Below, piece after piece: positions 3,672-43,533 of a stretch of DNA of 64,000 bases (the first letter of the stretch is position 1; every line of letters begins with the position of its first letter). The notes below the pieces were generated by a model, which saw nothing but the letters and a program-made list of their open reading frames with translations, made no database searches and was not told the origin of the DNA. Source of the DNA: an uncultured Eubacteriales bacterium (lineage in GTDB: Bacteria; Acidobacteriota; Aminicenantia; Aminicenantales; Saccharicenantaceae); NCBI GenBank assembly GCA_964652895.1, contig CAZZCH010000001.1:4814-68813 (forward strand). Reading direction: 5' to 3'. The position numbers were made by a program, and so were the translations under genes.

Positions 3672-4922
3672 TTACCTGAAAAAAAGGAGAGTGGTGACAA
3701 CGTAGAGCGGGATGAGGATGGCGAAGGAGTAGGCCATATAGCCGAAGAACGAGGGCATCTTCAGTTTGTATTCCTCGGCGATGACCTTGACCATGAAGTT
3801 CGGGCCGTTGCCGATGTAGGAGTTGGCGCCCATGAAGACGGCACCGGCGCTCATCGCCTTGAGGAAGATCGTTGGGATGCCCATCACGTCGCCGTTGAGG
3901 CCGAGGCCCTGTCCCATGGAGAAGAAAGCCAGATAGGTCGGCGTGTTGTCGAGGAAGGACGAGAGGCAGCCCGTGGCCCAGAAGAACTGCCACGGTCGGG
4001 TGATGCCGAGCGCCGCCGCCCGGGCGTTGAGGATGAGCAGGGCCGGCACCATCGTGATGAAAATGCCGGCGAAGAGGATGGCCACCTCCAGAATGGGGTT
4101 GTAGTTGAACTTGTTGTCGGCCCGGCACTGGCGCTTGGTCGTCAGCAGGGACGTGACGGACATGAGGATGAAGACGCCTTCGCGGCGCGGGAAAGGCAGG
4201 AACATACCGGCGATGACCCCGGCGATCCAGAGGAAGTTGATGGTCCCAGTCATGTGCAGGGGGACGACGCGGCGCCGGTCGCGGATGAGGTCGCGGCTCT
4301 CTTCCTTACGGTACTGCAAGCTGTCGAAGAGGTAGAACATCAGCAGCACACCGCCGACCATGACGGCCCACATGGGCAAAAGCCGGAGGGTCCAGAAGAA
4401 CGGCACGCCCTTGATGAAGCCCATGAAGAGCGGCGGATCGCCGAGCGGCGTCAGCAGGCCGCCGATGTTGGAGACGAGGAAGATAAAGAAGATCGGAACG
4501 TGGAGCGTATGCCGGCGCTCGGAGTTCGTCTGGAGGAGCGGCCGGATGAGGAGCATGCTCGCCCCGGTCGTACCGATGAAGTTGGCCAGGACGGCGCCGA
4601 CAAGGAGGAACAGCGTGTTGACCTCGGGGGTCGCTTTGAGGTCTCCCTTGAGGACGATGCCGCCGGAGATGATGAACAGGGCCGTGAGAAGGAGGAGAAA
4701 GGAAGCGTAGTCCTTCATCGACAGGACGAGTTCGTGCGGTGCCTGGAACAGAAAGTAGACCGCTATGGGCAGGGACCACAGGAAGGCGACGAGGGCCTTG
4801 TTCTTGTGGTTCTCCCAGAAGTGCGGCGCGCGGAGAGGAAGGAAGGCGATGGACAACAGAAGTCCCGCGAACGGGACTACGGCCCACAGCGACAGCGATT
4901 GACCGAGTTCATGCGCGTTCAT
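3672..4922 (-). CDS. ArsB/NhaD-superfamily permease (putative Na+/H+ antiporter NhaD-like)
   Basis: 416 aa polytopic membrane protein. It has repeated halves with the GxxP / NTPTYLAF-type motifs typical of the ArsB/NhaD ion-transporter superfamily. Confidence 0.6.
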   Translation of the reverse strand: MNAHELGQSLSLWAVVPFAGLLLSIAFLPLRAPHFWENHKNKALVAFLWSLPIAVYFLFQAPHELVLSMKDYASFLLLLTALFIISGGIVLKGDLKATPEVNTLFLLVGAVLANFIGTTGASMLLIRPLLQTNSERRHTLHVPIFFIFLVSNIGGLLTPLGDPPLFMGFIKGVPFFWTLRLLPMWAVMVGGVLLMFYLFDSLQYRKEESRDLIRDRRRVVPLHMTGTINFLWIAGVIAGMFLPFPRREGVFILMSVTSLLTTKRQCRADNKFNYNPILEVAILFAGIFITMVPALLILNARAAALGITRPWQFFWATGCLSSFLDNTPTYLAFFSMGQGLGLNGDVMGIPTIFLKAMSAGAVFMGANSYIGNGPNFMVKVIAEEYKLKMPSFFGYMAYSFAILIPLYVVTTLLFFR

Positions 4923-4999
4923 GAGATTCGTATTGTAGCGGAAGAGCAGTTTTTTTCAAGAGAAATCGGGGACCCCATGTTCCCCCCCCTATCGGACAC

Positions 5000-5860
5000 T
5001 CACGGCATAAAAGCCGTGGAGAGAAAGTACGCCCGCGCCGGCACCTTCCGTCTCGCCGCGCGCGTTTCGATGGGACGAAGCAGGGACCGATCGTCGCTCG
5101 GCGGCGTCAGGAAGAGGAGTGCCGCGCCCGCGGTCCAAAGTTCTTCGAGGACCTCGAGCGGCAGGCCGCGCTCGACGCGGACGACGGCCCGGACTCCGGC
5201 CGCCGCGCCGGCGCGGGCGGTCCCGGCAGCGAGCCCGGCCCATGTCTCCTCCGCGGAACCGCCGTCGGTCAGATGGACCCATGCGCCCCGGCCCGCCGGC
5301 GCACCGAGCTCCGGCGCGAGCGGTCCATGATGGTAATAGACGAAATAGCCCCGGCCGGATCTTGACGCGGCCGCGAGCTCGGCCAGGAGTACGAGGTCGC
5401 GCCGCGCGTTCAGGTTCGAAACGTGGAAATCCATCCCTCGCGCCAGAAGGTCCTCGAGCGTTTGGAGGGGAATACCGCCGGTTCCCTCCGCCGACGGAAG
5501 CGGGCCGTTCCAGAACACCGACAAGAACGTCCGGGAAGTCCGGCAGGCTTCGAGGAGGATCTGCCATTCGTCGGCCCGCGGACGGGCTTCATCCGAAGTG
5601 AGGACGCGGACGCCCTCGCCAACGAGGGCTTCGAGATCGGTGAGGCCTAGCCGACCGGTGTCGAGCAGGCTCAGCCGGATGCGCCGGCGCCGACCGTAGC
5701 GGGCCGCGTCGAGCAGGGCTTCGTAGTCGAACTGGTCGTCGCGGATGACGAGGTCCTGCCGCGTCCGGACGCGGTCGAGGAGTTCGTAGGTCCCGACGAC
5801 CCCGGCGATACCCTTTTCGATCGGATGTTCACTCATTTTTCGAATTTCAAGATATACCAT
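5000..5860 (-). CDS. hypothetical protein
   Basis: 286-aa ORF in the same orientation as the downstream permease. Codon bias is coding-like. I recognise no motif. Confidence 0.4.
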   Translation of the reverse strand: MVYLEIRKMSEHPIEKGIAGVVGTYELLDRVRTRQDLVIRDDQFDYEALLDAARYGRRRRIRLSLLDTGRLGLTDLEALVGEGVRVLTSDEARPRADEWQILLEACRTSRTFLSVFWNGPLPSAEGTGGIPLQTLEDLLARGMDFHVSNLNARRDLVLLAELAAASRSGRGYFVYYHHGPLAPELGAPAGRGAWVHLTDGGSAEETWAGLAAGTARAGAAAGVRAVVRVERGLPLEVLEELWTAGAALLFLTPPSDDRSLLRPIETRAARRKVPARAYFLSTAFMP

Positions 5861-5951: not shown

Positions 5952-6647
5952 GTGACATCCTGCATGGTCCTGTTTTCGGGCGGGCTCGATTCGACGACCG
6001 CCCTGGCCTGGGCCCGGACCCGCTATGACCGGGTCCACGCCCTGACCTTCGACTACGGCCAGCGGCACCGCGTCGAGGTCTCTCTCGCCCGGAAAGCCGC
6101 CCGCCGGTTGGGCGTCCCCTGTACCGTCCTCAAGGTCGACCTTCGGCAGATCGGCGGGTCGGCGCTGACCGACCCGCTCATCCCTCTCCCCCGCTCCACC
6201 CGGCCGCCGAAAAAGACGCCCGGCCCTCCGGCGACCTACGTCCCGTTCCGCAACGGGATCTTCCTCGCCCTGGCCGCGGCCTGGGCGGAGGCGCGCGGTG
6301 TCCAGGACCTCGTCTGCGGCTTCCATGTGGCCGACTCCCCCGACTATCCGGATACAACGCCGCGTTTCGTTCGGGCCATGGAGCGGGCCATCCGCGAGGG
6401 GACGAAGGCCGCTTTCGGCGGACCGCAATCGCGCGTCCGCGCGCCGCTTGTCGGCCTGGGCAAGACGGACATCATCCGGAACGGCCTGGCTCTCGGCGTC
6501 GACTATTCCTATTCGGTCTCCTGTTACTCCGGAAACGAGGCTCCCTGCGGGACCTGCTCGGCCTGTCGGCTTCGCGCCAGGGCCTGGAAGGCCGTCGGCC
6601 GCGAAGATCCCCTCCTCGTCCGTCTTCGAAAGGAAGGAAAACGATGA
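5952..6647 (+). CDS. queC: 7-cyano-7-deazaguanine synthase QueC
   Basis: N-terminal SGGLDS PP-loop and C-terminal CGTCSACRLR zinc motif. GTG at 5952 with a GGAGG SD; an alternative ATG is at 5964. Confidence 0.9.
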   Translation: MTSCMVLFSGGLDSTTALAWARTRYDRVHALTFDYGQRHRVEVSLARKAARRLGVPCTVLKVDLRQIGGSALTDPLIPLPRSTRPPKKTPGPPATYVPFRNGIFLALAAAWAEARGVQDLVCGFHVADSPDYPDTTPRFVRAMERAIREGTKAAFGGPQSRVRAPLVGLGKTDIIRNGLALGVDYSYSVSCYSGNEAPCGTCSACRLRARAWKAVGREDPLLVRLRKEGKR

Positions 6648-6991
6648 GCTGGACACTCAAGGTCCGTGACAAGTTCTCGGCCGCCCACTATCTCAAGGAA
6701 TACCGGGGCAAGTGCGAAAAGATCCACGGCCACACATTCCAGGTCGAGGTCGAGATCGCCGTCCGCGAGCTCGACCGGATCGGCATCGGAGTCGACTTCA
6801 TCGAGGTCAAGAAGGTCCTGGCCGCGGCGCTTCCTGACCATTCCCTTCTCAACGAGGTCTTCCCGTTCAATCCGTCCGCGGAGAACATCGCCCGCCATCT
6901 CTACGGCGAGCTAAAAAAAACCTACCCGGTCAAGGCGGTCACGGTCTGGGAATCCGAGGATGCGTCGGCCTCCTACGCTGAAGACGACTGA
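6644..6991 (+). CDS. queD: 6-carboxy-5,6,7,8-tetrahydropterin synthase QueD
   Basis: 115 aa with the CEKIHGHTF motif (PTPS/QueD family). ATGA overlap with queC. AGGAAGG SD. Confidence 0.85.
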   Translation: MSWTLKVRDKFSAAHYLKEYRGKCEKIHGHTFQVEVEIAVRELDRIGIGVDFIEVKKVLAAALPDHSLLNEVFPFNPSAENIARHLYGELKKTYPVKAVTVWESEDASASYAEDD

Positions 6992-7589
6992 GATCTTCGC
7001 CTCGGTCCAGGGCGAAGGCCTGCGCCAGGGCGAGCCGACGATCTTCGTCCGCCTCTCCGGATGCAACCGCCGCTGCGCCTTTTGCGACACGAAAAAGGCC
7101 TGGCGCGGCGGCCGGGAGATGCCGGTCGAAAGGATCGTGAAAGAAGTCCTCCGGCTCCGGCGCGGCTTCCCGGCCTCCTGGGTTTGCCTGACCGGGGGCG
7201 AGCCCCTGGCCCAAGACGTCCGCCCTCTCCTGCGGCGCCTCCACGAAACAGGACTCAAGGTCCAGGTCGAAACGAACGGAACGTTCCCCCCGGAACAAGG
7301 GGCGGATTGGATCACCGTATCGCCCAAGCCGCCGGATTATGACTTCCACCCCGGATTCCCGGAGCGGGCGCGCGAAGTGAAGCTCGTGGTTTGCCGGACG
7401 CTCACGCTCGACGCCGTCAGGAATGTGAGAAGATCCTTCCCTCGGGAGGTCCCCCTCATCCTTCAGCCGCAGTCGAACGCTCCCTGGAGCCGAAAAAAAG
7501 CCCTGAAGATCCTCGAAGACGCCTATCGGACGGGACTATCCAATATCCGCGTGTCCGTCCAACTCCACAAGGTCTACGGACTGCGCTAG
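6960..7589 (+). CDS. queE: 7-carboxy-7-deazaguanine synthase QueE (radical SAM)
   Basis: EIFASVQGEG...FVRLSGCNRRCAFCDT matches the QueE signature. It overlaps queD by 32 nt. The exact start is uncertain. Confidence 0.85.
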   Translation: MRRPPTLKTTEIFASVQGEGLRQGEPTIFVRLSGCNRRCAFCDTKKAWRGGREMPVERIVKEVLRLRRGFPASWVCLTGGEPLAQDVRPLLRRLHETGLKVQVETNGTFPPEQGADWITVSPKPPDYDFHPGFPERAREVKLVVCRTLTLDAVRNVRRSFPREVPLILQPQSNAPWSRKKALKILEDAYRTGLSNIRVSVQLHKVYGLR

Positions 7590-7673: not shown

Positions 7674-8582
7674 CTAATCCGACTTGGCGGCGTCCAGGAC
7701 GTCGTTGCCCCGCTTCCGCTCGAAGAGCCTGTAGCCGGACCGCGTCAGGTAGACGCCGAACAAGGTGATGGCCGTGCCGACGGCCTGGAGCATGGTCAGC
7801 CGCTCGCCGAGCGCGACCCCCGCGAAGAGGATGGCCAGGACGGGGGTCAGGTTGCCGTAGACGCCCGTCTTGGAGCTCCCGACCGCCTTGACGGACTGGT
7901 ACCAGAGGACGAAACAGAGGAATATGGCCACCAGGCCGGAATACAGGATGGCCCCCCAGCCTTGCCAGGGGATCCGCGCCCAATCGACCGCGGCCAGCCC
8001 CTTCGCCGCGAACGGCAGATAGACCAGGGTCCCGGCGATCGTCCCGACGGCGGCCAAACGGAACGCCGAATTCCGCCCCAAGACCGGTTTCGAGAATACG
8101 GTGTAAGCGGCCCAGAAAGCGTTGGCGATGAGGATCATGACCGCCCCACCCATGACTTCCCAAGTCAAGACGAGACCCCCGTTCTCTCCGGAGACGACGA
8201 GAAGAAAGCCGGCCACGGAGATGGCGATGCCGGCCCATCCGGCAAGCGAGATCCGTTCTTTCCCGACCGCGGTGGCCAGTAGGGCGATGAAGATGGGGCT
8301 CGTCCCCATGACGACGGAGGCCGTCGATGCGTTCATCCGGGCCAGGGCCTGGATAAAAACGATCTGATAGCCCGTGATGCCCAACAGCCCGAGTCCGGCC
8401 GCCTTCCACCCATCCCCCTTCCGGGCCAGGGAGAACTTGCCCGGGCTCACCACGAGCACGGCCAGATAAGCGATCGAAGCCAGGGCCAGCCGGACGGCAT
8501 TGAAGCCGTGGGGCGGCATCGTCCTCAGTCCGATTTTTAGGACCGAGACGTTGATGGCCCAGAGCAGAACGGTCAGGAACAT
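7674..8582 (-). CDS. EamA/DMT-family transporter
   Basis: Ten predicted TM helices in two EamA-like halves. I place the start at the internal Met (MFLTVLLWAINVSVLKIGL) at 8582. The 353-aa ORF in the track carries a non-membrane N-terminal extension. Confidence 0.65.
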   Translation of the reverse strand: MFLTVLLWAINVSVLKIGLRTMPPHGFNAVRLALASIAYLAVLVVSPGKFSLARKGDGWKAAGLGLLGITGYQIVFIQALARMNASTASVVMGTSPIFIALLATAVGKERISLAGWAGIAISVAGFLLVVSGENGGLVLTWEVMGGAVMILIANAFWAAYTVFSKPVLGRNSAFRLAAVGTIAGTLVYLPFAAKGLAAVDWARIPWQGWGAILYSGLVAIFLCFVLWYQSVKAVGSSKTGVYGNLTPVLAILFAGVALGERLTMLQAVGTAITLFGVYLTRSGYRLFERKRGNDVLDAAKSD

Positions 8583-8783
8583 CAACAGGTCGGTCCGGCC
8601 CAACCGCGGGCCGTTCGTCGACACGCTCAACGCCGCCAATCCCGTTTTTTTTGAACGGGGTGGACGGGGCTCAAGTTCAACCCTGAGCATACCCGGGGCT
8701 TCGGACCGGAGATGCGAATGGGTTAGCTGGAACACTTCGGCTTTTCCTCGGGGGGGGAATTCGCGGAATGGCGAGAGCGGCCT

Positions 8784-9182
8784 TTAGCGCCCGCGGGTCC
8801 GGGGGCGGGGGTAACGGGCCTCGACGACCGACCGGAGTCCGCCGCGCGGGTTGAACTCGCCCCTGACAACGGCGCTCGACGGGCGGCAGGCCCGAACGAT
8901 GTCCTCGAGGACCCGGTTGACCACGTTCTCGTAGAAAATGCCCAGGTTGCGGTAGGCCAGGAAATACCCCTTCAGGGACTTGAGTTCGAGGACGCTTTTA
9001 GCGGGGACGTAGCGGAGGATGATCGTCCCGAAATCCGGCAGTCCCGTCTTGGGGCAGACCGAGGTGAACTCCGGGCACTCGATGGCGATCTCATAATTCG
9101 GGAACTGGTTGGGGAAGGTTTCGAGGGCCGGCAGTTTCGTCTTGAGGCCGGCCTCGGCCTCCCTGTCGATGTATCGCGCCAT
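8784..9182 (-). CDS. queF: NADPH-dependent 7-cyano-7-deazaguanine reductase QueF (type I)
   Basis: ECPEFTSVCPKTGLPDF, which includes the catalytic Cys, and the ELKSLKGYF QueF motif. ATG at 9182 preceded by a GAGGAG SD. The track ORF begins 4 codons upstream at a GTG. Confidence 0.85.
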   Translation of the reverse strand: MARYIDREAEAGLKTKLPALETFPNQFPNYEIAIECPEFTSVCPKTGLPDFGTIILRYVPAKSVLELKSLKGYFLAYRNLGIFYENVVNRVLEDIVRACRPSSAVVRGEFNPRGGLRSVVEARYPRPRTRGR

Positions 9183-9605
9183 GGAACTCCTCACTAACCT
9201 CTTGAAGCTCTACGGACTTACGTCCGTGGAATCCCGCGGAGGGGATTGAAGATGGATATGATACATGAAAGCCGCGGCCTCGACAACGTGGGCCTCGGGG
9301 AGAACCGGCACGAACTCCAACGATTATCGCTCGTGTCGTTCCTTTCGTCAGCCGCTATACGCCGCCCGTATTGGCTGTGATGGGGACCACCCATATCCCC
9401 CGGCCCCCGGGAACCAGTCCCGGCGGTTCCCCCATCCTGCTTCGAGAGAAGCGGGATAGGCCCCCTACGCGTTGTGGATTGGCAATGGCTATCTCTCAGC
9501 CCGGCCCTGAGGCGGCCGCGGCTTTCCTGCGAGGATGGTTTCTTTGTGGTCAGGGAAATCCTATAATAGAAGGAGAGCTATATTCCTTTAGGGAGAGAGC
9601 TGCAT

Positions 9606-9809
9606 ATGAGCGAGTGTCAGAGCGCGAAAAACAAGGCCCGGTGCAACTGCAGTTGGGAGCCTTGCGACCGCAAGGGGCTCTGTTGCGATTGTCTGGCTTA
9701 TCACTGGAGCCTTCGGGAGCTCCCGGCCTGCCTGTTCCCAGATGCCGAGGAGAAAACCTACGACAGGTCCCTCCGGAAGTTCATCGAGATCTACAAAGGG
9801 AAGGCCTGA
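9606..9809 (+). CDS. small cysteine-rich protein (8 Cys in 67 aa), unknown function
   Basis: MSECQSAKNKARCNCSWEPCDRKGLCCDCLAYHW... A strong GGGAGAG SD sits 8 nt upstream. Its TGA overlaps the ATG of the next gene (cTGATGg), which suggests translational coupling. Confidence 0.5.
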   Translation: MSECQSAKNKARCNCSWEPCDRKGLCCDCLAYHWSLRELPACLFPDAEEKTYDRSLRKFIEIYKGKA

Positions 9810-10753
9810 TGGGCGAGCGCCGCCATATCTACGGCCCCGTGCCCTCGAGGCGCCTGGGCTTCTCCCTGGGGGTGGACATCATCCCCTTCAAGACCTGCAC
9901 CCTGGACTGCATATATTGCCAGCTCGGATCGACGCCGAAAACCGTCAGCCGGAGGGGGAGCTGGTTTCCCCCCGGGGAGATCCTGGCCCAGATCAAGGAG
10001 GCCGTGGAATCGGGGCAGCAGATCGATGTCATCACCTTCTCCGGCTCGGGCGAACCGACCCTCAATCGGGACATCGGCCGCATCATCCGGGCCATTAAAA
10101 AGATGACCCGGATCCCCGTCGCCGTCCTGACCAACGGGACCCTGCTCACCCGGAAAGAGGTGCGGCGGGACCTGGCCGCCGCGGACATCGTCGTGCCCTC
10201 GCTCGACGCCGCTCACGGTAACTTGTTCCGCCGCGTCAACCGGCCCAACAGGGCTCTCGATTCCAAAAGGATCATTGACGGCCTGGTCCGCTTCCGGAAA
10301 GAATTCCGGGGCGAGATTTGGCTCGAAGTCATGCTCATCAAGGGCGTCAACGATTCCCCGGCCCACATCGAAGCCCTCCGGAGGGCCGCGAACAGGATCC
10401 GCCCCGACCGCATTCAGCTGAACACGGTCGTCCGACCGCCGGCCGACGTCAAGGCGAAGCCGTTGAGCCCCAGAGCGATGCGCAAGATCCGCGATGCCCT
10501 CGGCCCCAGGGCTGAGATCATCGCCTCGTTCGAAAGGCGGGGACAAGCGCCGGCGGCCGGCGACTTCGAAGCGGCCCTCCTGACCGCTGTTGGGCGCAGG
10601 CCCATGACAGTCGAGGATATTTCTCTCTCCCTGGGCCGCCACCGCGACGAGGTCCTCAAAGCCCTGTCCTCACTCCTCGGCCGGCGGGAAGTCCGGAAGA
10701 CCGTCCATGGAGACAAAACGTACTTCGCTCGGGCACGCAGCCGGCTTTACTAG
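9808..10753 (+). CDS. radical SAM enzyme (MoaA/NifB-like core, no SPASM/twitch domain) with a C-terminal winged-helix-like domain
   Basis: MGERRHIYGPVPSRRLGFSLGVDIIPFKTCTLDCIYCQLG has a CxxxCxxC motif 30 aa from the start. A GSGEPTL glycine-rich SAM motif follows. The C-terminal ~70 aa is Cys-free and wHTH-like. The track's 460-aa ORF is an N-terminal extension in the same frame. Confidence 0.75.
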
Positions 10754-10798
10754 GCCCATTCGGCTGTGATAGCATGGATTTTCTTTAAGGAGTCATCC

Positions 10799-11764
10799 AT
10801 GTTTCTTAACACTCATTTTCCCAAGGCCAAGAAATACTGGTATATGGGAAAATTCTACGACTGGTCCGAGGCGGGCTGCCACCCCATGATGCACGCCCTC
10901 CACTACGGGACATCGACCTTCGAGGGGATCCGGGCCTACGGCACGGCCAAAGGACCCGCGATCTTCCGCTTGCCGGAGCACGTCGACCGGTTCATCCTGT
11001 CGGCGGGCGTGCTCAAGATGAAGCCCCCCTACAGCAAGGACGAGATCACCGATCTTATCAAGCTGACCGTCCGGGAGAATAAGCTCGAAAGCTGTTACAT
11101 CCGGCCCCTGCTCTTCTTTTCCTATGGCAACCTCGGGCTCGTGCCCAAGGCCTGTCCGGTGGAACTGGTCATCAGCGCCTGGGAGTGGGGGGCCTACCTC
11201 GGCGAGAAAGCGGGCGCCGGCATCCACGCCTACATCGTTCCCTGGCGTCGTGTCCACCACACCCAGTTCAATATGTCCGCCAAACTCGGCGGCGTCTACG
11301 TCCAGTCGACGATCTGCGGCCTCGAGGCCCGCGAAGAGGGTTTCGACGAGGCCGTCTTCCTGAACTTCGAGGGCCGCGTCGCCGAAGGGCCCGGACAGAA
11401 CATCACCATCGTCAAGAACGGGACGCTCGTGACGAATGACCGGAAGGAATCCGTCCTCGAAGGGATCACCCGGACGAGCCTCCTCGAGATCGCCCGCGAC
11501 CTCGGATTCAAGACGCTCGTCGGGCCCATCCGCAAGGAGGATTTCTTCGGGGCCGACGAGGCTTTTTTCTGCGGGACGGCGGTCGAGGTCATCCCCATCA
11601 TCTCCGTCACCGACGGGTCCGATCCGGCCGGTCCGAGAACAAAGCACACCATCGGAAAGGGCGTGCCCGGGCCGATCGCGCTGAAGATGATAGAGGCCTT
11701 CAAGGAGGCCGTGACCGGCCGCTCCCCCCGCTATGAGAAATGGCTGACGCGCGTCAACGGCTGA
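10799..11764 (+). CDS. ilvE: branched-chain amino acid aminotransferase (fold type IV)
   Basis: GTSTFEGIRAY...EAVFLNFEGRVAEGPGQNI is a class IV aminotransferase signature. AAGGAG SD 7 nt before the ATG at 10799. Confidence 0.85.
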   Translation: MFLNTHFPKAKKYWYMGKFYDWSEAGCHPMMHALHYGTSTFEGIRAYGTAKGPAIFRLPEHVDRFILSAGVLKMKPPYSKDEITDLIKLTVRENKLESCYIRPLLFFSYGNLGLVPKACPVELVISAWEWGAYLGEKAGAGIHAYIVPWRRVHHTQFNMSAKLGGVYVQSTICGLEAREEGFDEAVFLNFEGRVAEGPGQNITIVKNGTLVTNDRKESVLEGITRTSLLEIARDLGFKTLVGPIRKEDFFGADEAFFCGTAVEVIPIISVTDGSDPAGPRTKHTIGKGVPGPIALKMIEAFKEAVTGRSPRYEKWLTRVNG

Positions 11765-12228
11765 CGGGCGCCGTCCGGCTTCGGCCGGTGGGAGTCGTCA
11801 GGTCGCGTTTCAAGGAGCCGGCCGACCTGCCGCCCCCGACCTTCGCCCCGCCCCGCTTTCTCGAACGCGTCACCGGCCAGATCGAGATCTTCCCCGAATT
11901 CGCCGACGGCCTCGATGACCTCGAGGATTTTTCGCATCTCATCGTCCTGTTCTATTTCCATCGATCCACGGGGTTCAAGCTCAAGACCGTCCCGCCGGGC
12001 CAGTCCAGGCCGCGGGGGATCTTCTCGACCCGGTCGCCGCATCGGCCGAATCCGCTGGGCATGACCGTCGTCAAGCTGCTCGGAAGAGACGCCCGGATCC
12101 TCGAGGTTTCCGGGCTCGACCTCGTCGATGGTACGCCGGTCCTCGACCTCAAACCCTACACGACCCGGGACCGGAAATCGCGGATCCGGACGGGCTGGCT
12201 CCTAAAAAGGGGCCACCCCTCGCGATAG
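11740..12228 (+). CDS. tsaA: tRNA (adenine37-N6)-methyltransferase TsaA/TrmO family
   Basis: RPNPLGMTVVKLL...VLDLKPY is the conserved YaeB/TsaA core. The start is uncertain: the ATG at 11740 overlaps ilvE by 25 nt, and an alternative GTG lies at 11788. Confidence 0.7.
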   Translation: MADARQRLTGAVRLRPVGVVRSRFKEPADLPPPTFAPPRFLERVTGQIEIFPEFADGLDDLEDFSHLIVLFYFHRSTGFKLKTVPPGQSRPRGIFSTRSPHRPNPLGMTVVKLLGRDARILEVSGLDLVDGTPVLDLKPYTTRDRKSRIRTGWLLKRGHPSR

Positions 12229-14125: not shown

Positions 14126-14154
14126 TTGACCTCTCCTTTCTTTTAGATTAATAT
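14126..14154 (+). promoter_or_regulatory. sigma-70-like promoter (TTGACC, 17 bp spacer, TAATAT) driving the riboswitch-btuB transcript
   Basis: Good -35, 17-bp spacing and an AT-rich -10 located about 10 nt before the riboswitch starts. Confidence 0.45.
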
Positions 14155-14164
14155 TCCCGGCGGC

Positions 14165-14340
14165 TTATTCGAAGGGAAGTCCGTCGGATGCGGACACAGC
14201 CCCCGCTACTGTAACCGGGGACGAATCCCAAGAGACGCCACGGCCGCGAGGCTGGAAGGCTTGGGAGGAGGACGATCCGGGAGTCAGGAGACCTTCCGTA
14301 AGCCAGGGTCGACCGGTCTTCGGGCGGAAGACGGAATACT
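14165..14340 (+). ncRNA. cobalamin (B12) riboswitch
   Basis: Conserved elements of the B12 element: GAAGGGAAG...CCGC.ACUGUAACCGGGG...GCCAC and the B12-box AGUCAGGAGACCUUCC at 14282-14297. It sits immediately upstream of a TonB-dependent receptor gene. Confidence 0.75.
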
Positions 14341-14373: not shown

Positions 14374-16317
14374 ATGGACAGACGAACGCTCGCCCTCGTC
14401 GGCGTGCTCGCACTCATTCCGGCCGGCCTTCGGGCCGACGGCACCCAGGACAAAACCAGCCCGCCCCAGCGGCACGACATCGTCGTCACGGCCACTCGGC
14501 TGGAGACCCCGGAGAAGAAGGTCGGGAGCTCCCTGACGGTCATAACGAGCGAGGAGTTGGCCCGCAGCCACAAGACCTTCGTCCTCGAAGCCCTGGAGGA
14601 TGTCCTGGGCCTATCGACCCTCCGGAACGGGGGGCCAGGCGCGACGTCCTCCGTCTCCATTCGAGGGGCCGGGAGCGAGCACACGCTATTCCTTCTCGAC
14701 GGCCTTGAGCTCAACGACCCGATCAACCCCTCCCGCTCTTACGACCTGGCCCATTTGTCCCTCAGCCATGTCGAGCGCATCGAGATCCTCCGCGGCCCCC
14801 AGGGCCTCCTCTACGGTTCGGACGCGCTCGGCGGCGTCGTCAATATCATCACCCGGGCCGGGCGCGGCAAACCCCGCCTGACCCTTGCCTCGTCGGCGGG
14901 AACGCGCCAAACGCTCACCTCCGACCTCGGGCTCTCGGGTTCGGGCCGGAAGACGGACTACTCGCTCTCCCTGTTCCACGAACGGACCGCGGGCATATCC
15001 GCGGCCTCGTCCGCCTATCCGGGCAACATCGAAAAGGACGGCTATCGCAATCTGTCTCTCGCCGCCCGGTTCGGATATGCTCCCCGGCCGACGGAGAGCC
15101 TGACCTTGACGGTCAAAGCCGTGGAAGCCCGGACCGAGCTCGACAACTTCGGCGGGCCCGGAGGGGACGATCCGAACAACCGACAGGATTACGGGACCCT
15201 TCTCGTCCGCGGGCAATATCGCGGCCTCGCCGCCGGCGGCCGCTGGGAACACGCCCTCTCCGTTTCCTGGCTGGGCGCCGAGCGCGAGAACAGGAACCCG
15301 GTCGACGACGCCCATCCCCAGGACCGGGACGAGGGCCTCTATCGGAGCGACCTCTTCAAACTCGATTGGCAGAACAATTTTTTCCTCCACCCGGCACACA
15401 CGCTCACGGCCGGCCTCGAGCTCGAGCAAGAAAGAGGGCGTTCCGATTACGTTTCGGAAAGCGCTTGGGGGACCGTTGAATCCCGCTTCCCGTCCGTCCG
15501 GGCAGGGTCGGCCGGTGTTTATCTCCTGGACCGCTGGGAACACGGAGAGCGGTTTTTCATCACGGCCGGCGTCCGGGTCGACCGCCACAGCCGGGCCGGG
15601 ACGGCGGCGACGTTCCGCGTCGCTCCGGCGTATCTCATCGCCGCGACGGGGACGAAACTCAAGGCCTCGTTCGGCACCGGCTTCAAATCGCCCTCCCTTT
15701 ATCAACTTTTCGCGCCGGCGACTTCCTGGGGACCTGTGGGCAACCCGGCCCTGCGGCCGGAGAGGGCCTCGGGCTGGGACGCAGGACTCGAGCAGAGCTT
15801 CATGAAGGAGCGGTTCACATTCGGGCTGACCTGGTTCGAAAACGTCTTTCGGGACCTCGTCGACTTCGACTTCGCGGCCGGTTACGTCAACATCGGCCGG
15901 GCCCGGACGCGCGGCTTCGAGGCCTCGGCTAAAACACGGTTTGCCGGCGGGGTCCGTCTGGGGGCCTCCTACACGCGTCTCGTGGCCAGGGACGAAGGCA
16001 CCGGGACGGACCTCCTCCGCCGGCCCCGCGACAAGTTCTCCGTCGATTTCAGCGCGCGCCTGGCCGGCCGCTTCGATCTGACGGTGACGTCCCTCACCAT
16101 CGGACGCCGGCTCGACATGGACTTCAGCGCATATCCCTATCAGACCGTCCGGCTCCCCGGGTATGTCCTTTTCGGCGCCGTCCTATCGACGGCCATCGGG
16201 CCCCGGCTCGAGCTCTTCGCCCGCCTCGACAACATCCTCGGCGCCCGCTACGAACAGGTCTGGGGCTACGGCGCTCCGGGCTTCTCGCTGACAACGGGCG
16301 TCCGGTGCGTCCTCTAG
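14374..16317 (+). CDS. btuB: TonB-dependent outer-membrane receptor, BtuB-like vitamin B12 transporter
   Basis: Signal peptide, then a TonB-box-like DIVVTATR, a plug domain and a long beta-barrel with TonB-dependent-receptor motifs. It is under a B12 riboswitch. Confidence 0.85.
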   Translation: MDRRTLALVGVLALIPAGLRADGTQDKTSPPQRHDIVVTATRLETPEKKVGSSLTVITSEELARSHKTFVLEALEDVLGLSTLRNGGPGATSSVSIRGAGSEHTLFLLDGLELNDPINPSRSYDLAHLSLSHVERIEILRGPQGLLYGSDALGGVVNIITRAGRGKPRLTLASSAGTRQTLTSDLGLSGSGRKTDYSLSLFHERTAGISAASSAYPGNIEKDGYRNLSLAARFGYAPRPTESLTLTVKAVEARTELDNFGGPGGDDPNNRQDYGTLLVRGQYRGLAAGGRWEHALSVSWLGAERENRNPVDDAHPQDRDEGLYRSDLFKLDWQNNFFLHPAHTLTAGLELEQERGRSDYVSESAWGTVESRFPSVRAGSAGVYLLDRWEHGERFFITAGVRVDRHSRAGTAATFRVAPAYLIAATGTKLKASFGTGFKSPSLYQLFAPATSWGPVGNPALRPERASGWDAGLEQSFMKERFTFGLTWFENVFRDLVDFDFAAGYVNIGRARTRGFEASAKTRFAGGVRLGASYTRLVARDEGTGTDLLRRPRDKFSVDFSARLAGRFDLTVTSLTIGRRLDMDFSAYPYQTVRLPGYVLFGAVLSTAIGPRLELFARLDNILGARYEQVWGYGAPGFSLTTGVRCVL

Positions 16318-39038: not shown

Positions 39039-40565
39039 TCAGCGTCTGGCGCGCAACGTCGCCAGCGCTTCGGCGACCTCTTGGCCTTTGGCTTCGATCT
39101 CGTCCAGGATCTGCTCTGGGGTCCGTTCGTCCACGACGACCTTACGGTTGGGATTGACCGCCTTGAGGTCATAGCCCCGTTCCTCGATCTCGGCCCGGGT
39201 GACCGTCCAGCTCCGCTCGCTTTCGGCCCGCTCCGGCAGCAGTTTGAAGAATTCCTCAAAATGCGCCACCGTGAGAGGTGACTTTTTCCCTACCTTAATG
39301 TCCGAAAGGTCGAAATACCAAATCTGCTCCGTCGGTTTTCCCCTGGTGAAAAAGAGTAGATTAGTTTTGACGCCGGCCCCCGCGTTGACGAACGCCCCGC
39401 CGGAGAGGCTGATCAGGGCCCATAGGTCGCAGTCATCGAGCAATTTGCGCTTGGTTTGGACGAAGGCCGTTTCATTCGTCCGAAAAAGAACCCCCTCGTC
39501 GAGAACGATCCCGCATCGTCCGCCCGGCTTGAGCGAATCGATAACGTGTTGGAGGAAGAGGACCTGTGTCGCTCCCGTCTTGTAGGCGAAACGAGTTTGG
39601 GCCTCTTTGCCTTCCTTGCCCCCAAAAGGAGGGTTCGTCAGGACGACGTCGAAGAGAGCCGGCGCGTCCTGATAGAGCCCGCCGTAGATTTCATTCCCCG
39701 TGAGAGTGTTGCCGTGCCAGAGCCGCGGCTCGTCGATGCCATGCAAGATCAGGTTAGCCAGGGCGATCGGATAGATGAGATTTTCCTTCTCCCGGCCATA
39801 GAAGGTCCGTTGAGCGAGGGCATCGATCTTGTCGGGGGTCACGCCAGCTTTCGAATGCTCCCGCATGTAGAGGAACGACTGGACAAGGAAGCCGCCTGTT
39901 CCGCAACAGGGGTCATAAACCGTCTCTCCGGTTTTCGGGCCGATCGCCCTGACCATGGCCCGGATGACCTCACGGGGCGTGAAAAACTGCCCCCCGTCGT
40001 TGCCCTTCTCTCCCATCTTAAGGAGAAGTCCCTCATAGACCTGGGAAAGCGGAAAAACGTGAGTGGGGTCGATGGATTCGTTTGTGATTTCGTCGACTTT
40101 GTCCAAGACGTCGAGGAAGTTTCGCTCGGTATCGATGCGAACACGCTCGACGCCGGATAATATTTCGCTGATAACTTTCTGCCTGGAGGATGCGTTGGGC
40201 CGCTCTCGGAGCCCCCGCAAATGGGGTAAAAGCTCGCCGTTGACGAAGCCGAAAAAACCGCCTAAAGCCCCGTTCTGAAGTTCTACGCGCTTGGGCCCCT
40301 TAGGGTCGGCCCAATCCTTCCAGCGGAAAGGAGATTCAAGCGAGGGTATGTATTCCGCGCTAACGGCCTCCGACTCCTCCGCCTCCCGGGCCTCTTTTTC
40401 GTCCAGGATCCGAAGGAAAAGGAGCCAAGTCAGCTCCGGCACGTATTGCAGGGCGCCGGCGCAGTTCGAACGCCGCATGACATCGCATATGGACTTGACG
40501 GCAGAATTTACGGATCCCTGCGAATTCAGCCGCTTGCCGTTTCCATTTTTCCTCGCTCTGGCCAT
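39039..40565 (-). CDS. hsdM: type I restriction-modification system, N6-adenine DNA methyltransferase subunit
   Basis: N-terminal HsdM_N region, a DPCCGTGGFL SAM motif and an NPPFG catalytic motif. Confidence 0.9.
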   Translation of the reverse strand: MARARKNGNGKRLNSQGSVNSAVKSICDVMRRSNCAGALQYVPELTWLLFLRILDEKEAREAEESEAVSAEYIPSLESPFRWKDWADPKGPKRVELQNGALGGFFGFVNGELLPHLRGLRERPNASSRQKVISEILSGVERVRIDTERNFLDVLDKVDEITNESIDPTHVFPLSQVYEGLLLKMGEKGNDGGQFFTPREVIRAMVRAIGPKTGETVYDPCCGTGGFLVQSFLYMREHSKAGVTPDKIDALAQRTFYGREKENLIYPIALANLILHGIDEPRLWHGNTLTGNEIYGGLYQDAPALFDVVLTNPPFGGKEGKEAQTRFAYKTGATQVLFLQHVIDSLKPGGRCGIVLDEGVLFRTNETAFVQTKRKLLDDCDLWALISLSGGAFVNAGAGVKTNLLFFTRGKPTEQIWYFDLSDIKVGKKSPLTVAHFEEFFKLLPERAESERSWTVTRAEIEERGYDLKAVNPNRKVVVDERTPEQILDEIEAKGQEVAEALATLRARR

Positions 40566-40567
40566 AT

Positions 40568-41578
40568 CTACTTCCTTTTGCTGATGAGATTCATGACAAT
40601 GCGGATTATCGAATTCTTTTCCCGCGGCGAGCTCTCCGCAATGAGGAGCGTTATGGCCACAAGAGCGGTATCGGCAATTCGCTTCGTGCCGTCTTGATGA
40701 TAAAGCGAACCATTTTTCTCCATGAACCAGAGGAATAGCGCCGCCGCGATTCGTTTGTTGCCGTCCACGAAGCTGTGGTTTTTGACCAGGAAATAGAGGA
40801 GATGGGCCGCCTTCTCTTCGAGACCGGGATAAACGTCCTTCCCGTCGAACGTCTGCATGACGGCGTTAAGTGAACTATGGAGGCTGTCGTCCTTCTCGCG
40901 GCCGAAAATGTCCGAAGCGCCGAATTTCTCACGGAGCCGCTCGATAATGCTTTGAGCCTCGTCGTAGGAAATCGAATTCGCCCGGCCTTTTTGAACGGGC
41001 GCGGCAGGGATCTTCTGATGGTCGTAATCGTCGAGAAGGTCCAAGGCATAGGCGTAGTCCGTGACCACGCGCAACAGTGCTTTGGCCTCATCCGACGTAA
41101 CTTCGTAATGGTCCAGGACGTGCTCGACGAGCTGAAGCGACTGCCGAAGCTCCTTGAGGCGGTGCTCATTCGCCGTGTACCCCTTGACGATATGGTCCTT
41201 CAGAACGTTTGTGGCCCAGATACGGAACTGGGTCCCACGCTTGGAATTCACCCGGTAGCCGACGGAGATTATCATGTCAAGGCTGAAAAGGTCGATCTGG
41301 CGGATCTTGCCATCAGCAGCAACCTGTGCATTTTTTGCACAGGTTGATTTCTCGGCTAACTCATTGGTAGAGTAGATGTTGTGGATGTGTTTAAGGATAA
41401 CGGTACGATCACGCCCGAATAGGGCAGCCATCTGATGCGCGTCAAGCCAGACAGTATCCCGCTCAAGGCGTACCTCTAAGGCCGCAGGGCCGCCGGCTGT
41501 CCGATAGAGGACTATTTCCCCCTTTCTTTCACCAGGAATCCACCTATCTGCTTTTTCTTGGATTTTATTCTTTGCCAT
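40568..41578 (-). CDS. RhuM-family protein fused to a Fic/DOC domain
   Basis: The N-terminal 200 aa are RhuM-like (virulence protein family). The C-terminus carries the Fic motif HSFVDGNKRIAAALF, i.e. HxFx(D/E)GNKR. It is embedded between hsdS and hsdM. Confidence 0.8.
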   Translation of the reverse strand: MAKNKIQEKADRWIPGERKGEIVLYRTAGGPAALEVRLERDTVWLDAHQMAALFGRDRTVILKHIHNIYSTNELAEKSTCAKNAQVAADGKIRQIDLFSLDMIISVGYRVNSKRGTQFRIWATNVLKDHIVKGYTANEHRLKELRQSLQLVEHVLDHYEVTSDEAKALLRVVTDYAYALDLLDDYDHQKIPAAPVQKGRANSISYDEAQSIIERLREKFGASDIFGREKDDSLHSSLNAVMQTFDGKDVYPGLEEKAAHLLYFLVKNHSFVDGNKRIAAALFLWFMEKNGSLYHQDGTKRIADTALVAITLLIAESSPREKNSIIRIVMNLISKRK

Positions 41579-41580
41579 GG

Positions 41581-42795
41581 TCAGGGCTCTCCATTAAACG
41601 CCCTTCTTAATAACGCCGCAGGCAGGGAATTTATCTCATGGAGTTGTTTCTCGATATCGTTCCGGAGCCGTTCCGTGGATGCCATTTGCTCATTCAGAAC
41701 GGCCGCGATATGTTTTTGCTCGGCCATTTCACATACTGGGACTTGGAGGTTCTCTATATGCGGCCGCGTTATTTTTTTCATCGATCCACTGGCTCCACCA
41801 GCCTTCGATCTCCAATATCCGCTTATGAATAAAAAAGAAAGATAGTTTGTGAGAAATTCCGGATGTACATCATGGGCTGTTCTTATCCTGATCGTGAGAT
41901 CCGAGGCGACGATCTGATTGGCAGCACCTTTATAAAGAGAAACCCGGCCAACAAGCTCGGCCGTGTTGCTTCGAGCGATAAGAATTTCGCCCGGGTTCAA
42001 AATACACATTGGTACGTCTTTTGCCCTCATGTGGCCAGTTTTTATGCCATCATAAGAAAATCCGCCTTCCGTGAGACACGCGGTGGTAACTGCTTGGACT
42101 TCGACGTCCCCTTCAGTAGCAATGGATTTCGATGGCAAGAGTGTTGCAGTATTTCCTAATCTAGCCCACCGCCAGTCGGGAGGCAATTCCTGTCCTTCCT
42201 TAGGAAAGACCTGACCCAGATAAGCTGCCGGGAGCGCCTTTGCCGCCTCAAGCTGAGCCTCAGCGGCGGCTCGCGCTTTTTCCACAGCCCCCGTCTGCTC
42301 ATCGAGAATGGCAGCAATGCGCTTTTGCTCGGATAGGGGCGGGAGGGGTACGGCGAAGTCTTCAAGCTCCTTGCGATTGATTGCCCCGAAGGTGCTTCCA
42401 CTTCCCTTTCTCTCTAGGTTACTTTCTTCTTTTTTTATCCAGAACAAAAGGAAGTCCATTTCAATGCTATTCCCACACCGAACAGCAGCAAGCCCTCTCC
42501 CGATACAGCATTCTTGGTTGGCAACATTAGTTGGCCCAACGGGTGCTCTTACTGATATGAGTATGTCCTTTGCTTTTGCTAACTTTGTTGGCTCGACACA
42601 CCAGGCTCGAGGAATCGGATGCCGCTGGCCGAAATCAGCTTTTCCTTGAAAAAACGGGAGGCCCTCTGGGGCTTTTCGATAAGTATGACCAGGGGGAGAC
42701 TGACCTGCAATAATTTCACACACCTCCCCTAGTTCCACCCACCGCCAGCCGGGGGGTAAAGTTGGCTGCTCTTTCAATCTTCTATTGACATTCAT
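41581..42795 (-). CDS. hsdS: type I restriction-modification system specificity subunit (two target-recognition domains)
   Basis: Two TRD halves separated by the conserved LPPLSEQKRIAAILDE and (END) LPAALLRRAF coiled-coil spacers. Confidence 0.85.
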   Translation of the reverse strand: MNVNRRLKEQPTLPPGWRWVELGEVCEIIAGQSPPGHTYRKAPEGLPFFQGKADFGQRHPIPRAWCVEPTKLAKAKDILISVRAPVGPTNVANQECCIGRGLAAVRCGNSIEMDFLLFWIKKEESNLERKGSGSTFGAINRKELEDFAVPLPPLSEQKRIAAILDEQTGAVEKARAAAEAQLEAAKALPAAYLGQVFPKEGQELPPDWRWARLGNTATLLPSKSIATEGDVEVQAVTTACLTEGGFSYDGIKTGHMRAKDVPMCILNPGEILIARSNTAELVGRVSLYKGAANQIVASDLTIRIRTAHDVHPEFLTNYLSFLFISGYWRSKAGGASGSMKKITRPHIENLQVPVCEMAEQKHIAAVLNEQMASTERLRNDIEKQLHEINSLPAALLRRAFNGEP

Positions 42796-42906
42796 AGGTT
42801 TGTCTTAGATATTATAGCCAATCCGGTTATCCGGAGGTGGATGGCGAAGGCCATCGGGCCCATTTGGGCCTTTTTATTTCCGGGCTCCCGCTGTGTTTTC
42901 TTGGGC

Positions 42907-43533
42907 TCATGCCTTGGAAAGTCCTCGGAGACGCCGGTTCACGGCCTCAAGATTGAAGAACGAGGGGTTGAATCTTCCGCCCATCCACTCTTTGATCTCT
43001 TCGTGTTCAGGATGATTGGTGTCCTTGATGATTTCCAGTTTCCCGTAGTATCCGTAAAGGCCGCCGCTGTCCTCGGGCGGACAGGCATTCTCTCCTTCAA
43101 GGCACCGGGGATACGATGCCCCTTCATTTGGGAGATCGGCTTTCTCTACCGTGATTTCGTGGATCCAATCGTCTCCGAAATCATAGATATAGCGGAACGA
43201 TTTCCCGGTCGCGGGAATAACGTCCTTCGCCCTGACCCGGCTTTCATCGCGCATCTCGGGCGCGAACAGATTGTCCGACGATGCCGAAGGCCCATAATTG
43301 GTCCCGCCGATGACGAATTCATGAAGATGGTCATCCTCCCAGCCCATCGCCCACTGTAAAACTTTGTGCAAGACCGCCAGCCTGAGGCTGCCGGGGACTT
43401 GGATCCGGCGCCAGATCGGAGGTTTGGAGCCCGCCAAGACGACTTTTAGTTGGTATATGCCATCCTTCGTTACGGCTGAAGCCTGCCGCGCGCTCTTCGA
43501 GTGTCCGGAAGGAAGCCTCGTCTTGGTTTTCAT
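42907..43533 (-). CDS. pRiA4b ORF-3-like family protein (PF07929), unknown function
   Basis: YQLKVVLAGSKPPIWRRIQVPGSLRLAVLHKVLQWAMGWEDDHLHEF is the family signature. ATGA overlap with hsdR. Confidence 0.6.
   Translation of the reverse strand: MKTKTRLPSGHSKSARQASAVTKDGIYQLKVVLAGSKPPIWRRIQVPGSLRLAVLHKVLQWAMGWEDDHLHEFVIGGTNYGPSASSDNLFAPEMRDESRVRAKDVIPATGKSFRYIYDFGDDWIHEITVEKADLPNEGASYPRCLEGENACPPEDSGGLYGYYGKLEIIKDTNHPEHEEIKEWMGGRFNPSFFNLEAVNRRLRGLSKA

Follow-up and report, generated by a model that had tools for sequence, protein, structure and literature searches.

A DUF6485 mini-protein gene overlapping the gene of a radical S-adenosylmethionine enzyme from a large unnamed clade in Aminicenantes

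Results

Gene pair and the DUF6485 mini-protein

Here we describe two overlapping genes found in a stretch of 64,000 nucleotides (hereafter the window) from an uncultured bacterium of the class Aminicenantia (assembly GCA_964652895.1, contig CAZZCH010000001.1, positions 4,814 to 68,813 of the forward strand). The first gene (9606..9809 of the window, + strand) runs from an ATG at 9606 to a TGA stop at 9807-9809 and encodes a 67-aa protein of the Pfam family DUF6485. The second (9809..10753, + strand), with its ATG at 9809, encodes a 314-aa protein of the radical S-adenosylmethionine (SAM) superfamily. The stop codon of the first overlaps the start codon of the second in the sequence TGATG, and a purine-rich, Shine-Dalgarno-like run, AGGGAGAGAG, is present at 9590-9599, with 6 nt between its end and the DUF6485 ATG. 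The initial annotation of the window had already described the 67-aa open reading frame (ORF), its eight cysteines with seven among the first 29 residues, the Shine-Dalgarno sequence and the TGATG overlap, and all of them were found where it had placed them. The outcome of our analysis is a plausible accessory-metalloprotein relationship between the two products, as judged from sequence comparisons, and the description of a large uncharacterised radical-SAM clade.

The small protein (MSECQSAKNKARCNCSWEPCDRKGLCCDCLAYHWSLRELPACLFPDAEEKTYDRSLRKFIEIYKGKA, 67 aa) has its eight cysteines at residues 4, 13, 15, 20, 26, 27, 29 and 42, seven of them within residues 1-29. It matches DUF6485 (PF20095) over residues 8-64 of 67 with 33.2 bits against a gathering threshold of 24, and the same family is carried by 120 of 120 listed homologues. 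Among the protein-database matches listed there are 146 homologues, and sequences 52-93% identical come from Aminicenantes, Omnitrophota, Coatesbacteria and unnamed metagenome bins. Moreover, a pattern scan of a collection holding one genome per species gave at least 591 confirmed matches, those listed including Dehalococcoidia, Planctomycetota, WOR-3, Deltaproteobacteria, Dictyoglomota, Zixibacteria, Thermoplasmata, Hadesarchaea and others. In a cross-phylum alignment of 20 sequences (A1), residues C4, C13, C15, C20, C26, C27, C29, H33 and C42 are invariant, and so is the stretch P-A-C-x-F-P...E-x-T-Y-D-R-S. The alignment has 23 invariant columns and a mean column identity of 59% from bacteria to archaea, with conservation along the whole length. 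Substitutions at codon positions 1, 2 and 3, counted against 11 related genes, number 134, 164 and 383, an excess at the third position. The small ORF at 9606-9809 is thus a genuine gene and a member of DUF6485, not the spurious frame that the initial annotation had considered as a possibility, and the family consists of cytoplasmic mini-proteins of 64-70 residues from anaerobic bacteria and archaea.

The AlphaFold2 model of the DUF6485 protein is helical (predicted local distance difference test, pLDDT, 73), with the lowest confidence in the cysteine-rich N-terminal half, which would fit a fold dependent on bound metal. Foldseek returned no match for this model in the PDB, and the sole resemblance from a profile search of PDB sequences was a marginal one, to the zinc ribbon of eL37 (E 0.03). 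Comparison by hhalign with DUF1847, DUF2284 and CGGC profiles was non-significant, the best being DUF2284 at 4.6% probability; the same comparison showed a short, non-significant resemblance between the cysteine motif of DUF6485 and the N-terminal one of DUF2284. A literature search found nothing on DUF6485.

Radical-SAM enzyme and its clade

The product of the second gene matches the Pfam family Radical_SAM (PF04055) with 80.2 bits against a threshold of 29.5, which places it in the superfamily. It has three cysteines in total, C30-x3-C34-x2-C37 (9896..9919, + strand), and these are the only cysteines conserved family-wide. No SPASM match was found in Pfam, and no twitch or SPASM cysteines are present in the protein or conserved in its family. 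Ahead of the cluster loop, the motif G-P-V-x-S-R-R-L-G (residues 9-17; 9833..9859, + strand), invariant in alignments A2 and A4, sits on a beta-hairpin predicted by AlphaFold2, with strands at residues 7-13 and 17-22. The model, built with 36 homologues, is a partial TIM barrel (pLDDT 85, predicted template modelling score, pTM, 0.84) that ends in three helices followed by a beta-hairpin, that is, a winged helix at residues 253-308 (10565..10732, + strand; limits from AlphaFold2 secondary structure), at the start of which R263, R264 and P265 (RRP) are invariant. Pfam gives only weak matches to DprA_WH and TrmB at the winged helix of the window protein, and that of homologues matches HTH_5, MarR_2, TrmB and HTH_20. 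There is no Pfam match to PqqD at E<=0.1; the winged helix itself belongs to a fold class related to the RiPP recognition element (RRE; RiPP, ribosomally synthesized and post-translationally modified peptide). These results agree with the earlier description of a CxxxCxxC protein without SPASM or twitch cysteines and with a cysteine-free winged-helix tail.

Its closest homologues, at 70-97% identity, carry the annotation Candidatus Aminicenantes. When 1.84 billion representative proteins were searched exhaustively, a clade of 1,199 clusters at 50% identity (E<=1e-30) emerged, of which the 150 best are mostly about 310 residues long and align over nearly the whole query. Clade motifs include the hairpin G-P-V-x-S-R-R-L-G-x-S-L-G-x-D, K-x-C-x3-C-x-Y-C, G-S-G-E-P-x-L, T-N, a stretch with N-T-x-x-R-P, and R-R-P at the beginning of the winged helix. 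In databases, its members are named "radical SAM protein" or, by JGI through COG0731, "wyosine synthetase". Literature searches found nothing on the GPVPSRRLG motif or COG0731, and the literature on DUF89, DUF134 and NifX-like proteins yielded nothing on the GPVxSRRLG clade.

The protein scored above no NCBIfam family cut-off, those of pyruvate formate-lyase (PFL) activase, the anaerobic ribonucleotide reductase (RNR) activase NrdG, MoaA, TYW1 and QueE included. The best similarities, all far under threshold, were to MoaA, a tungsten-enzyme maturase, PFL activase, viperin, TYW1 and QueE. In the PDB, sequence searches retrieved only RlmN, NifB and MoaA (E 1e-4 to 1e-3), and fold searches with Foldseek retrieved PFL activase, NifB, lipoyl synthase, RlmN, viperin and TYW1 at 12-24% identity. 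Based on these data, we regard 9809-10753 as encoding a predicted radical-SAM enzyme of a large unnamed clade; this assignment and the DUF6485 membership are, at the level of identity, highly probable. The initial annotation had held that neither protein could be assigned to a characterised family. This stands insofar as neither gene is supported as a member of a functionally characterised family and no NCBIfam cut-off was passed, with the correction that the small protein falls in a catalogued, uncharacterised Pfam family. Since homologues of the small ORF exist and the enzyme lies outside the characterised families, neither outcome that the initial annotation had named as fatal to the novelty of the pair was found.

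Comparison with known radical-SAM systems

MoaA (GTP 3',8-cyclase) gave the best NCBIfam similarity (TIGR02666, E 3e-14, residues 29-183) and shares the N-terminal layout R-x-L-x-x-S...CxxxCxYC. It was rejected as an identity by its score (52.7 bits against a cut-off of 284), by the absence of C-terminal cysteines for a second cluster and by a different C-terminal domain. The best structural match was a PFL activase (3cb8, E 2.3e-10, template modelling score 0.70 on the target). This and other glycyl-radical activases are compact, single-cluster enzymes like the one described here and act on a protein partner, as the latter would also do; it differs from them by the additional winged helix and the GPVxSRRLG hairpin. 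Identity is 16%, and the scores for PFL activase (TIGR02493, 35.8 bits against 231.75), NrdG (TIGR02495, 27.5 against 131.15) and TIGR02494 (27.7 against 174.35) are far below cut-off, so that the enzyme stands outside both activase families, and no glycyl-radical enzyme gene was seen beside the radical-SAM gene in any locus examined.

TYW1/Taw1 shares COG0731 by automated annotation, and 2yx0 is Foldseek match 23. An identity as 4-demethylwyosine synthase was excluded by the TYW1 score (TIGR03972, 28.2 bits against 317.95) and by the absence of auxiliary-cluster cysteines. In contrast to TYW1, the clade is widespread in bacteria, from which, to our knowledge, no wyosine derivatives are known. 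QueE was likewise rejected, its best model (TIGR03963) scoring 29.5 bits against a cut-off of 260. The archaeosine enzyme RaSEA is marked by genomic or physical coupling to ArcS (PMC11298593); its name is absent among the best 25 NCBIfam matches of the radical-SAM protein, and neither the window nor related loci have an arcS- or tgt-like gene next to the pair.

NifB, the synthase of the FeMo-cofactor precursor, combines a radical-SAM core with a NifX-like domain, and some members of the clade are likewise fused to a NifX-like domain while many stand beside NifX-like genes. Both cores are partial TIM barrels; 6y1x, 7bi7 and 7jmb are among the top Foldseek matches (E about 1e-10), and 6y1x is also a match by sequence (E 2e-4). 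Besides Cx3Cx2C, the NifB fingerprint comprises the motifs HPC, ExRP, AGPG, TxTxN and Cx2CRxDAxG (PMC5715403). None of these five occurs in the radical-SAM protein, and NifB was rejected as its identity. Furthermore, the enzyme lacks K-cluster ligands and a nif context, carries a winged-helix tail, and belongs to a clade in which the NifX-like domain, when fused, is N-terminal, whereas in NifB it is C-terminal.

SCIFF, a conserved cysteine-rich peptide that is the substrate of a radical-SAM/SPASM maturase, offers a further parallel as a small, highly conserved cysteine-rich ORF adjoining a radical-SAM gene. The present system differs in that its enzyme lacks a SPASM domain, in most genomes DUF6485 and the enzyme are not tied to each other, and DUF6485 has nine invariant residues of metal-ligand type and a predicted helical fold.

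The pair within Aminicenantes

In the window and eight other Aminicenantes loci, the DUF6485 stop codon lies 24-54 nt before the GPV-motif codon, and therefore the two genes abut or overlap in all nine. The block DUF6485 - radical SAM - ilvE - trmO is recurrent in this group. As exceptions, other genes (1 to 1.5 kb) stand between DUF6485 and the enzyme in L010, L011 and L077, and in L016 DUF6485 is present but the enzyme is missing.

The pair in the window is divergent from queF and about 2 kb from queCDE, as the initial annotation had noted, and the array queF-EamA-queEDC adjoins it in the window and at least eight further Aminicenantes loci. In L167, L015, L021 and L023, the position of the que genes is occupied by Mrp/NifU genes. 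In L167, which has no que genes, the order is ParA - CGGC - metallo-beta-lactamase - Mrp - Mrp - DUF4405 - NifU_N - DUF6485 - radical SAM, followed 3' by DUF6125 - methyltransferase - ilvE - DUF123 - trmO. This gene order indicates that the que genes are an interchangeable upstream neighbour and that DUF6485 - radical SAM (- ilvE - trmO) is the conserved core. The presence of que genes next to the pair is thus a lineage-specific synteny of Aminicenantes. In the Aminicenantes-like L166, queF and the radical-SAM gene are separated by an insertion (4141-5702) that encodes a ThaI-type restriction endonuclease and an N6/N4 DNA methyltransferase.

The pair in other lineages

Outside Aminicenantes, we studied 66 loci anchored on DUF6485, and for the enzyme 80 diverse metagenome loci anchored on the radical-SAM gene (median pairwise identity 46%), about 50 of which have usable flanks. 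A GPVxSRRLG-type radical-SAM gene is present within 4 kb of DUF6485 in five of the 66 loci (L047, L055, L062, L065 and L079). In 448 kb of flanking DNA, 0.18-0.67 such cases would be expected by chance (Poisson P 1e-6 to 7e-4, rising to as much as 5e-3 when the similar L062 and L065 are counted as a single event), and this radical-SAM gene is the only neighbour of DUF6485 that recurs across phyla. Two further loci, L040 and L059, entered the radical-SAM cluster through single-linkage BLAST only, were unconfirmed by phmmer and were left out of the count. In the Pfam census, four radical-SAM genes stand immediately next to DUF6485; they are members of other families, SPASM-like or B12-binding, and were also excluded from the support.

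Several of the arrangements look like operons: DUF6485 - Nudix - radical SAM - BMC in a Sumerlaeota locus (L079), Mrp - Mrp - DUF6485 - Nudix - ARMT1 - radical SAM in deep Aminicenantes (L077), radical SAM - TrxB-like - ThiI/NFACT-R - DUF6485 - FeoAB in Planctomycetia (L055), and radical SAM - (MFS) - DUF6485 - DUF2284 in Ignavibacteria (L062) and Zixibacteria (L065). DUF6485 and the enzyme are on one strand in all of these as well as in L170, where they flank FUR (radical SAM - FUR - DUF6485, on a contig of 39% G+C), and on opposite strands in the Planctomycetota locus L047. The enzymes of L055, L062 and L065 form a shorter subfamily of about 255 aa without the winged helix. In L062 (5956-6735) and L065 (4697-5443), DUF6485 directly precedes DUF2284, a predicted metal-binding protein.

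The sole locus among the 80 that has DUF6485 is Aminicenantes-like and also contains queF and EamA. The general linkage of the two genes to each other, and of both to que genes, that could have been expected from the initial annotation is therefore not borne out: the enzyme is near DUF6485 in 5 of 66 loci, DUF6485 is near the enzyme in 1 of 80, and the que genes are confined to part of the Aminicenantes save for queF in L170. DUF6485 and the enzyme do not constitute a conserved two-gene system; their pairing is mainly a habit of Aminicenantes, where the coupling is tight.

The full order in L170 (2060-8254) is QueF - CbiA ATPase - RACo (corrinoid reductive activator) - DUF362 - radical SAM - FUR - DUF6485 - MAP - YhcC-like radical SAM, and this contig may represent a second lineage with queF, enzyme and DUF6485 inside 6 kb. 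Its DUF6485 protein ends in ...YQERGRWW, as in homologues of the Omnitrophota type. In L003 (2481-9203), a gene for B12-dependent methionine synthase (MetH) is directly followed by DUF6485 and then by MnmG.

Metallocluster proteins in the neighbourhood of both genes

An N-terminal Nitro_FeMo-Co (NifX-like) domain is fused to the enzyme in three representative clusters (P0242, P0352 and P0434), and a C-terminal methyltransferase in one cluster. Among the 80 radical-SAM loci, NifX-like genes are found near the enzyme gene in 10, Mrp/NUBPL-type P-loop ATPases with ferredoxin inserts in nine, ARMT1-like (DUF89) phosphatases in eight (typically directly downstream, with a median gap of 1.5 nt), DUF134 in seven, glyoxalase-type proteins in six, ArsP_2 exporters in five and CGGC-domain proteins in four; at least one of NifX, Mrp, ARMT1, DUF134 and CGGC is present in 22 of the 80. 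The radical-SAM proteins of the NifX, Mrp and DUF134 subsets are about 45% identical, being as divergent as the whole set, and the association is therefore old or repeatedly selected. In a Methanocellales locus (L169, 707-6700), the order is DtxR - NifX-like - Mrp(Fer4) - DUF4213/DUF364 - Mrp(Fer4) - metallo-beta-lactamase - radical SAM - DUF1847 - DUF123. Several neighbouring genes overlap there, and the position coupled to the enzyme is held by DUF1847, another cysteine-rich protein.

Similar neighbours were found for DUF6485. The gene annotated immediately upstream of it is NifU_N in L016 and L167, its loci L016, L021, L027, L039, L047 and L077 contain Mrp-type genes, and it lies downstream of NifU_N/Mrp genes in L016, L021, L167 and L077.

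ARMT1-like (DUF89) genes stand beside the radical-SAM gene in L093, L094, L107, L117, L126, L136, L150 and L162, and also in L077; in a subset of these loci, an ArsP_2 exporter with 10 transmembrane segments and a glyoxalase-family protein are found with them. Such a context may point to a link with metal(loid)s or phosphometabolites, and a phosphorylated small molecule as substrate would also be compatible with the neighbours of Nudix, ARMT1 and phosphoglycerate-mutase-like type.

Flanking genes and annotation of the window

Upstream of the pair, a 411-bp divergent intergenic region (9195..9605, including the Shine-Dalgarno-like run) separates DUF6485 from queF (8784-9194, - strand; NCBIfam QueF-II above cut-off). 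It contains two promoter-like sites, both on the minus strand only, and in the interval 9150-9650 Rfam gave no riboswitch or other match at E<=1. The genes queC, queD and queE (5952-7589) lie 2.0-3.6 kb upstream of the pair. QueC is above its NCBIfam cut-off and QueD just below, and the QueE-type protein encoded at 6960-7589 scores under every QueE cut-off. Between queE and queF there is a gene for an EamA/DMT-family transporter (7674-8735, - strand), a position kept in at least nine Aminicenantes loci and L166; its product may carry a 7-deazapurine precursor.

Downstream, ilvE, for a branched-chain amino-acid transaminase (10766..11764, + strand; NF005146, 330 bits against a cut-off of 279), likely starts at an ATG at 10799, preceded by AAGGAG. 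No terminator-like site was found from 10753 to ilvE, which is probably co-transcribed downstream of the radical-SAM gene, and the order of these two genes is retained in L006, L007, L013, L019, L021 and L167. The gene trmO/tsaA (11740..12228, + strand), of the tRNA m6t6A37 methyltransferase family by TIGR00104 (139 bits against 93) and by synteny, overlaps the end of ilvE and is the final gene of the same-strand block.

The frame of the radical-SAM gene is open upstream as far as 9371 (9371-10753, + strand), adding 438 nt and giving a 460-aa ORF that overlaps the DUF6485 gene. This extension is unconserved, the radical-SAM homologues having 311-314 aa. DUF6485 homologues of 85-96 aa in databases also resemble mis-called starts. 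Automated annotation of the locus is error-prone because of this open frame and of the likely mis-called DUF6485 starts.

Farther downstream, about 3.4 kb from the pair, a TonB-dependent receptor gene (14374-16317) is directly preceded by a cobalamin riboswitch (14127-14314, + strand; RF00174, 98 bits); together they look like an uptake unit under B12 control. At about 39039-45896 (- strand), a run of ORFs has N-termini that resemble, by eye and from the ORF list only, the type I restriction-modification proteins HsdM, HsdS and HsdR.

Discussion

The best explanation overall, to which we assign a probability of roughly 0.45, is that DUF6485 is an accessory partner of a metallocluster- or cofactor-linked enzyme. 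According to this explanation, DUF6485 would be a folded module binding Zn or Fe-S rather than a peptide precursor. The enzyme would reductively cleave SAM at its sole [4Fe-4S] cluster to give the 5'-deoxyadenosyl radical and would act on a substrate that partner proteins present to it, with the winged helix and the arginine-rich hairpin possibly serving as docking surface. The partners that recur across phyla would be handlers of metalloclusters or cofactors, such as NifX-like carriers and Mrp/NBP35-type ATPases with ferredoxin inserts, joined by CGGC, DUF1847, NifU and ARMT1 phosphatases. DUF6485 would then act in trans, in Aminicenantes and a few other lineages, as the cysteine-rich accessory (a carrier of clusters or metal, or an electron donor) of an enzyme having no auxiliary-cluster ligands of its own. 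Of the roles proposed in the initial annotation, that of a metal-binding partner is accordingly the most compatible with the evidence, whereas its picture of a dedicated two-gene pair is not supported.

Several observations weigh against such a partnership and favor the absence of any functional link. DUF6485 and the enzyme would then be independent housekeeping genes of anaerobes, neighbours since the Aminicenantes ancestor and kept together by operon inertia as ilvE and trmO are, with DUF6485 a general small Zn or Fe-S protein in an unrelated role. Outside Aminicenantes, 61 of the 66 DUF6485 loci have no such enzyme within 4 kb, the neighbours of DUF6485 are heterogeneous (156 Pfam families for 125 immediate neighbours, each seen four times at most), and 79 of the 80 radical-SAM loci lack DUF6485. 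Even among Aminicenantes and Aminicenantes-like loci the two genes can part: L166 retains queE-EamA-queF and the enzyme without DUF6485, and L016 shows the converse. Unrelated functions are mixed in the operon, which ilvE and trmO share, so co-transcription alone says little about function. Finally, confidence in the DUF6485 model is only moderate (pLDDT 73), and no solved fold matched it. On the other hand, operon inertia hardly accounts for same-strand co-localisation in at least five further lineages and two enzyme subfamilies, well above chance, for a tight coupling maintained over 50-97% divergence of the enzyme within Aminicenantes, or for the Mrp/NifU/NifX neighbourhoods touched by both families. 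We consider the absence of a link a serious but not favored possibility. Co-localisation above chance and the operon-like arrangements therefore incline us, by a little, towards a genuine and facultative functional relation, while the specific role of DUF6485 as a metallocluster accessory is tentative and open to considerable doubt.

The genomic surroundings also suggested a role in RNA or deazapurine modification, in which the enzyme would tailor tRNA or 7-deazaguanine with an RNA-binding winged helix and DUF6485 would be a zinc-ribbon-like subunit. The array queF-EamA-queEDC lies beside the pair in Aminicenantes, in L170 the distance between queF and the enzyme is 3.5 kb, trmO belongs to the block of the pair and also lies near the enzyme in L130 and L156, and MnmG is beside DUF6485 in L003. 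The conserved arginines (SRR, RRP) could bind phosphate backbones. A weak hint comes from genes of s4U (4-thiouridine) type for ThiI-NFACT-R in L055, L062, L065 and L146, predicted as a housekeeping s4U pathway (PMC4075521). Nevertheless, que genes are absent from 79 of the 80 radical-SAM loci and, except for one QueD-like gene, from the 66 DUF6485 loci outside Aminicenantes. The queuosine/archaeosine reading of the initial annotation leaned on a synteny confined to part of the Aminicenantes, with Mrp/NifU in place of the que genes in the sister lineages L167, L015, L021 and L023. The TYW1 model reaches 28 bits against 318, no tgt or arcS homologue is adjacent, and fusions and neighbours point most strongly to metallocluster proteins rather than to RNA enzymes, all of which makes this role unlikely. 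Less likely still is a RiPP-like modification, in which DUF6485 would be the substrate and the enzyme would install thioether or other crosslinks on its cysteines. This idea, also raised initially, draws on the translational coupling of a cysteine-rich small ORF to a radical-SAM gene, on the SCIFF precedent of such a peptide as radical-SAM substrate, and on the fact that winged-helix domains can serve as peptide-recognition elements. Against it stand an enzyme with three conserved cysteines only and without SPASM or twitch cysteines, the absence of a PqqD/RRE match in Pfam and of protease, transporter or immunity genes in the block, and the uniform conservation of DUF6485 across phyla, with neither a leader/core split nor a variable core. 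DUF6485 usually has no enzyme nearby, nor the enzyme DUF6485, which is not the obligate linkage of a maturase and its precursor.

The accessory-partner explanation can be taken one step further. Outside nitrogen fixation, the GPVxSRRLG clade might act on protein-bound metal clusters by a radical chemistry like that of NifB, a proposal that we make as a speculation of low probability. Small cysteine-rich carriers would be needed in trans because the enzyme lacks auxiliary-cluster ligands, and DUF6485 (Cys8-His) would be a dedicated carrier or auxiliary-cluster subunit, interchangeable with the NifX-like, DUF1847 and CGGC proteins found elsewhere.

For annotation, our results mean that the locus is not to be mined as a RiPP cluster nor annotated as queuosine biosynthesis, and that the name "wyosine synthetase" is unjustified for the radical-SAM gene. 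Both families are large and uncharacterised, with at least 591 matches for DUF6485 and 1,199 clusters at 50% identity for the radical-SAM clade. In anaerobes that do not fix nitrogen, members of this clade recur as fusions with, or as neighbours of, NifX-like, Mrp-type and other proteins that handle Fe-S clusters. If the link between DUF6485 and the enzyme holds, the Aminicenantes operon would be the cleanest two-gene experimental entry to a radical-SAM clade whose only conserved cysteines are those of CxxxCxxC. If the NifB-like proposal were also true, anaerobes would possess a modular, split radical-SAM system for metallocofactor maturation.

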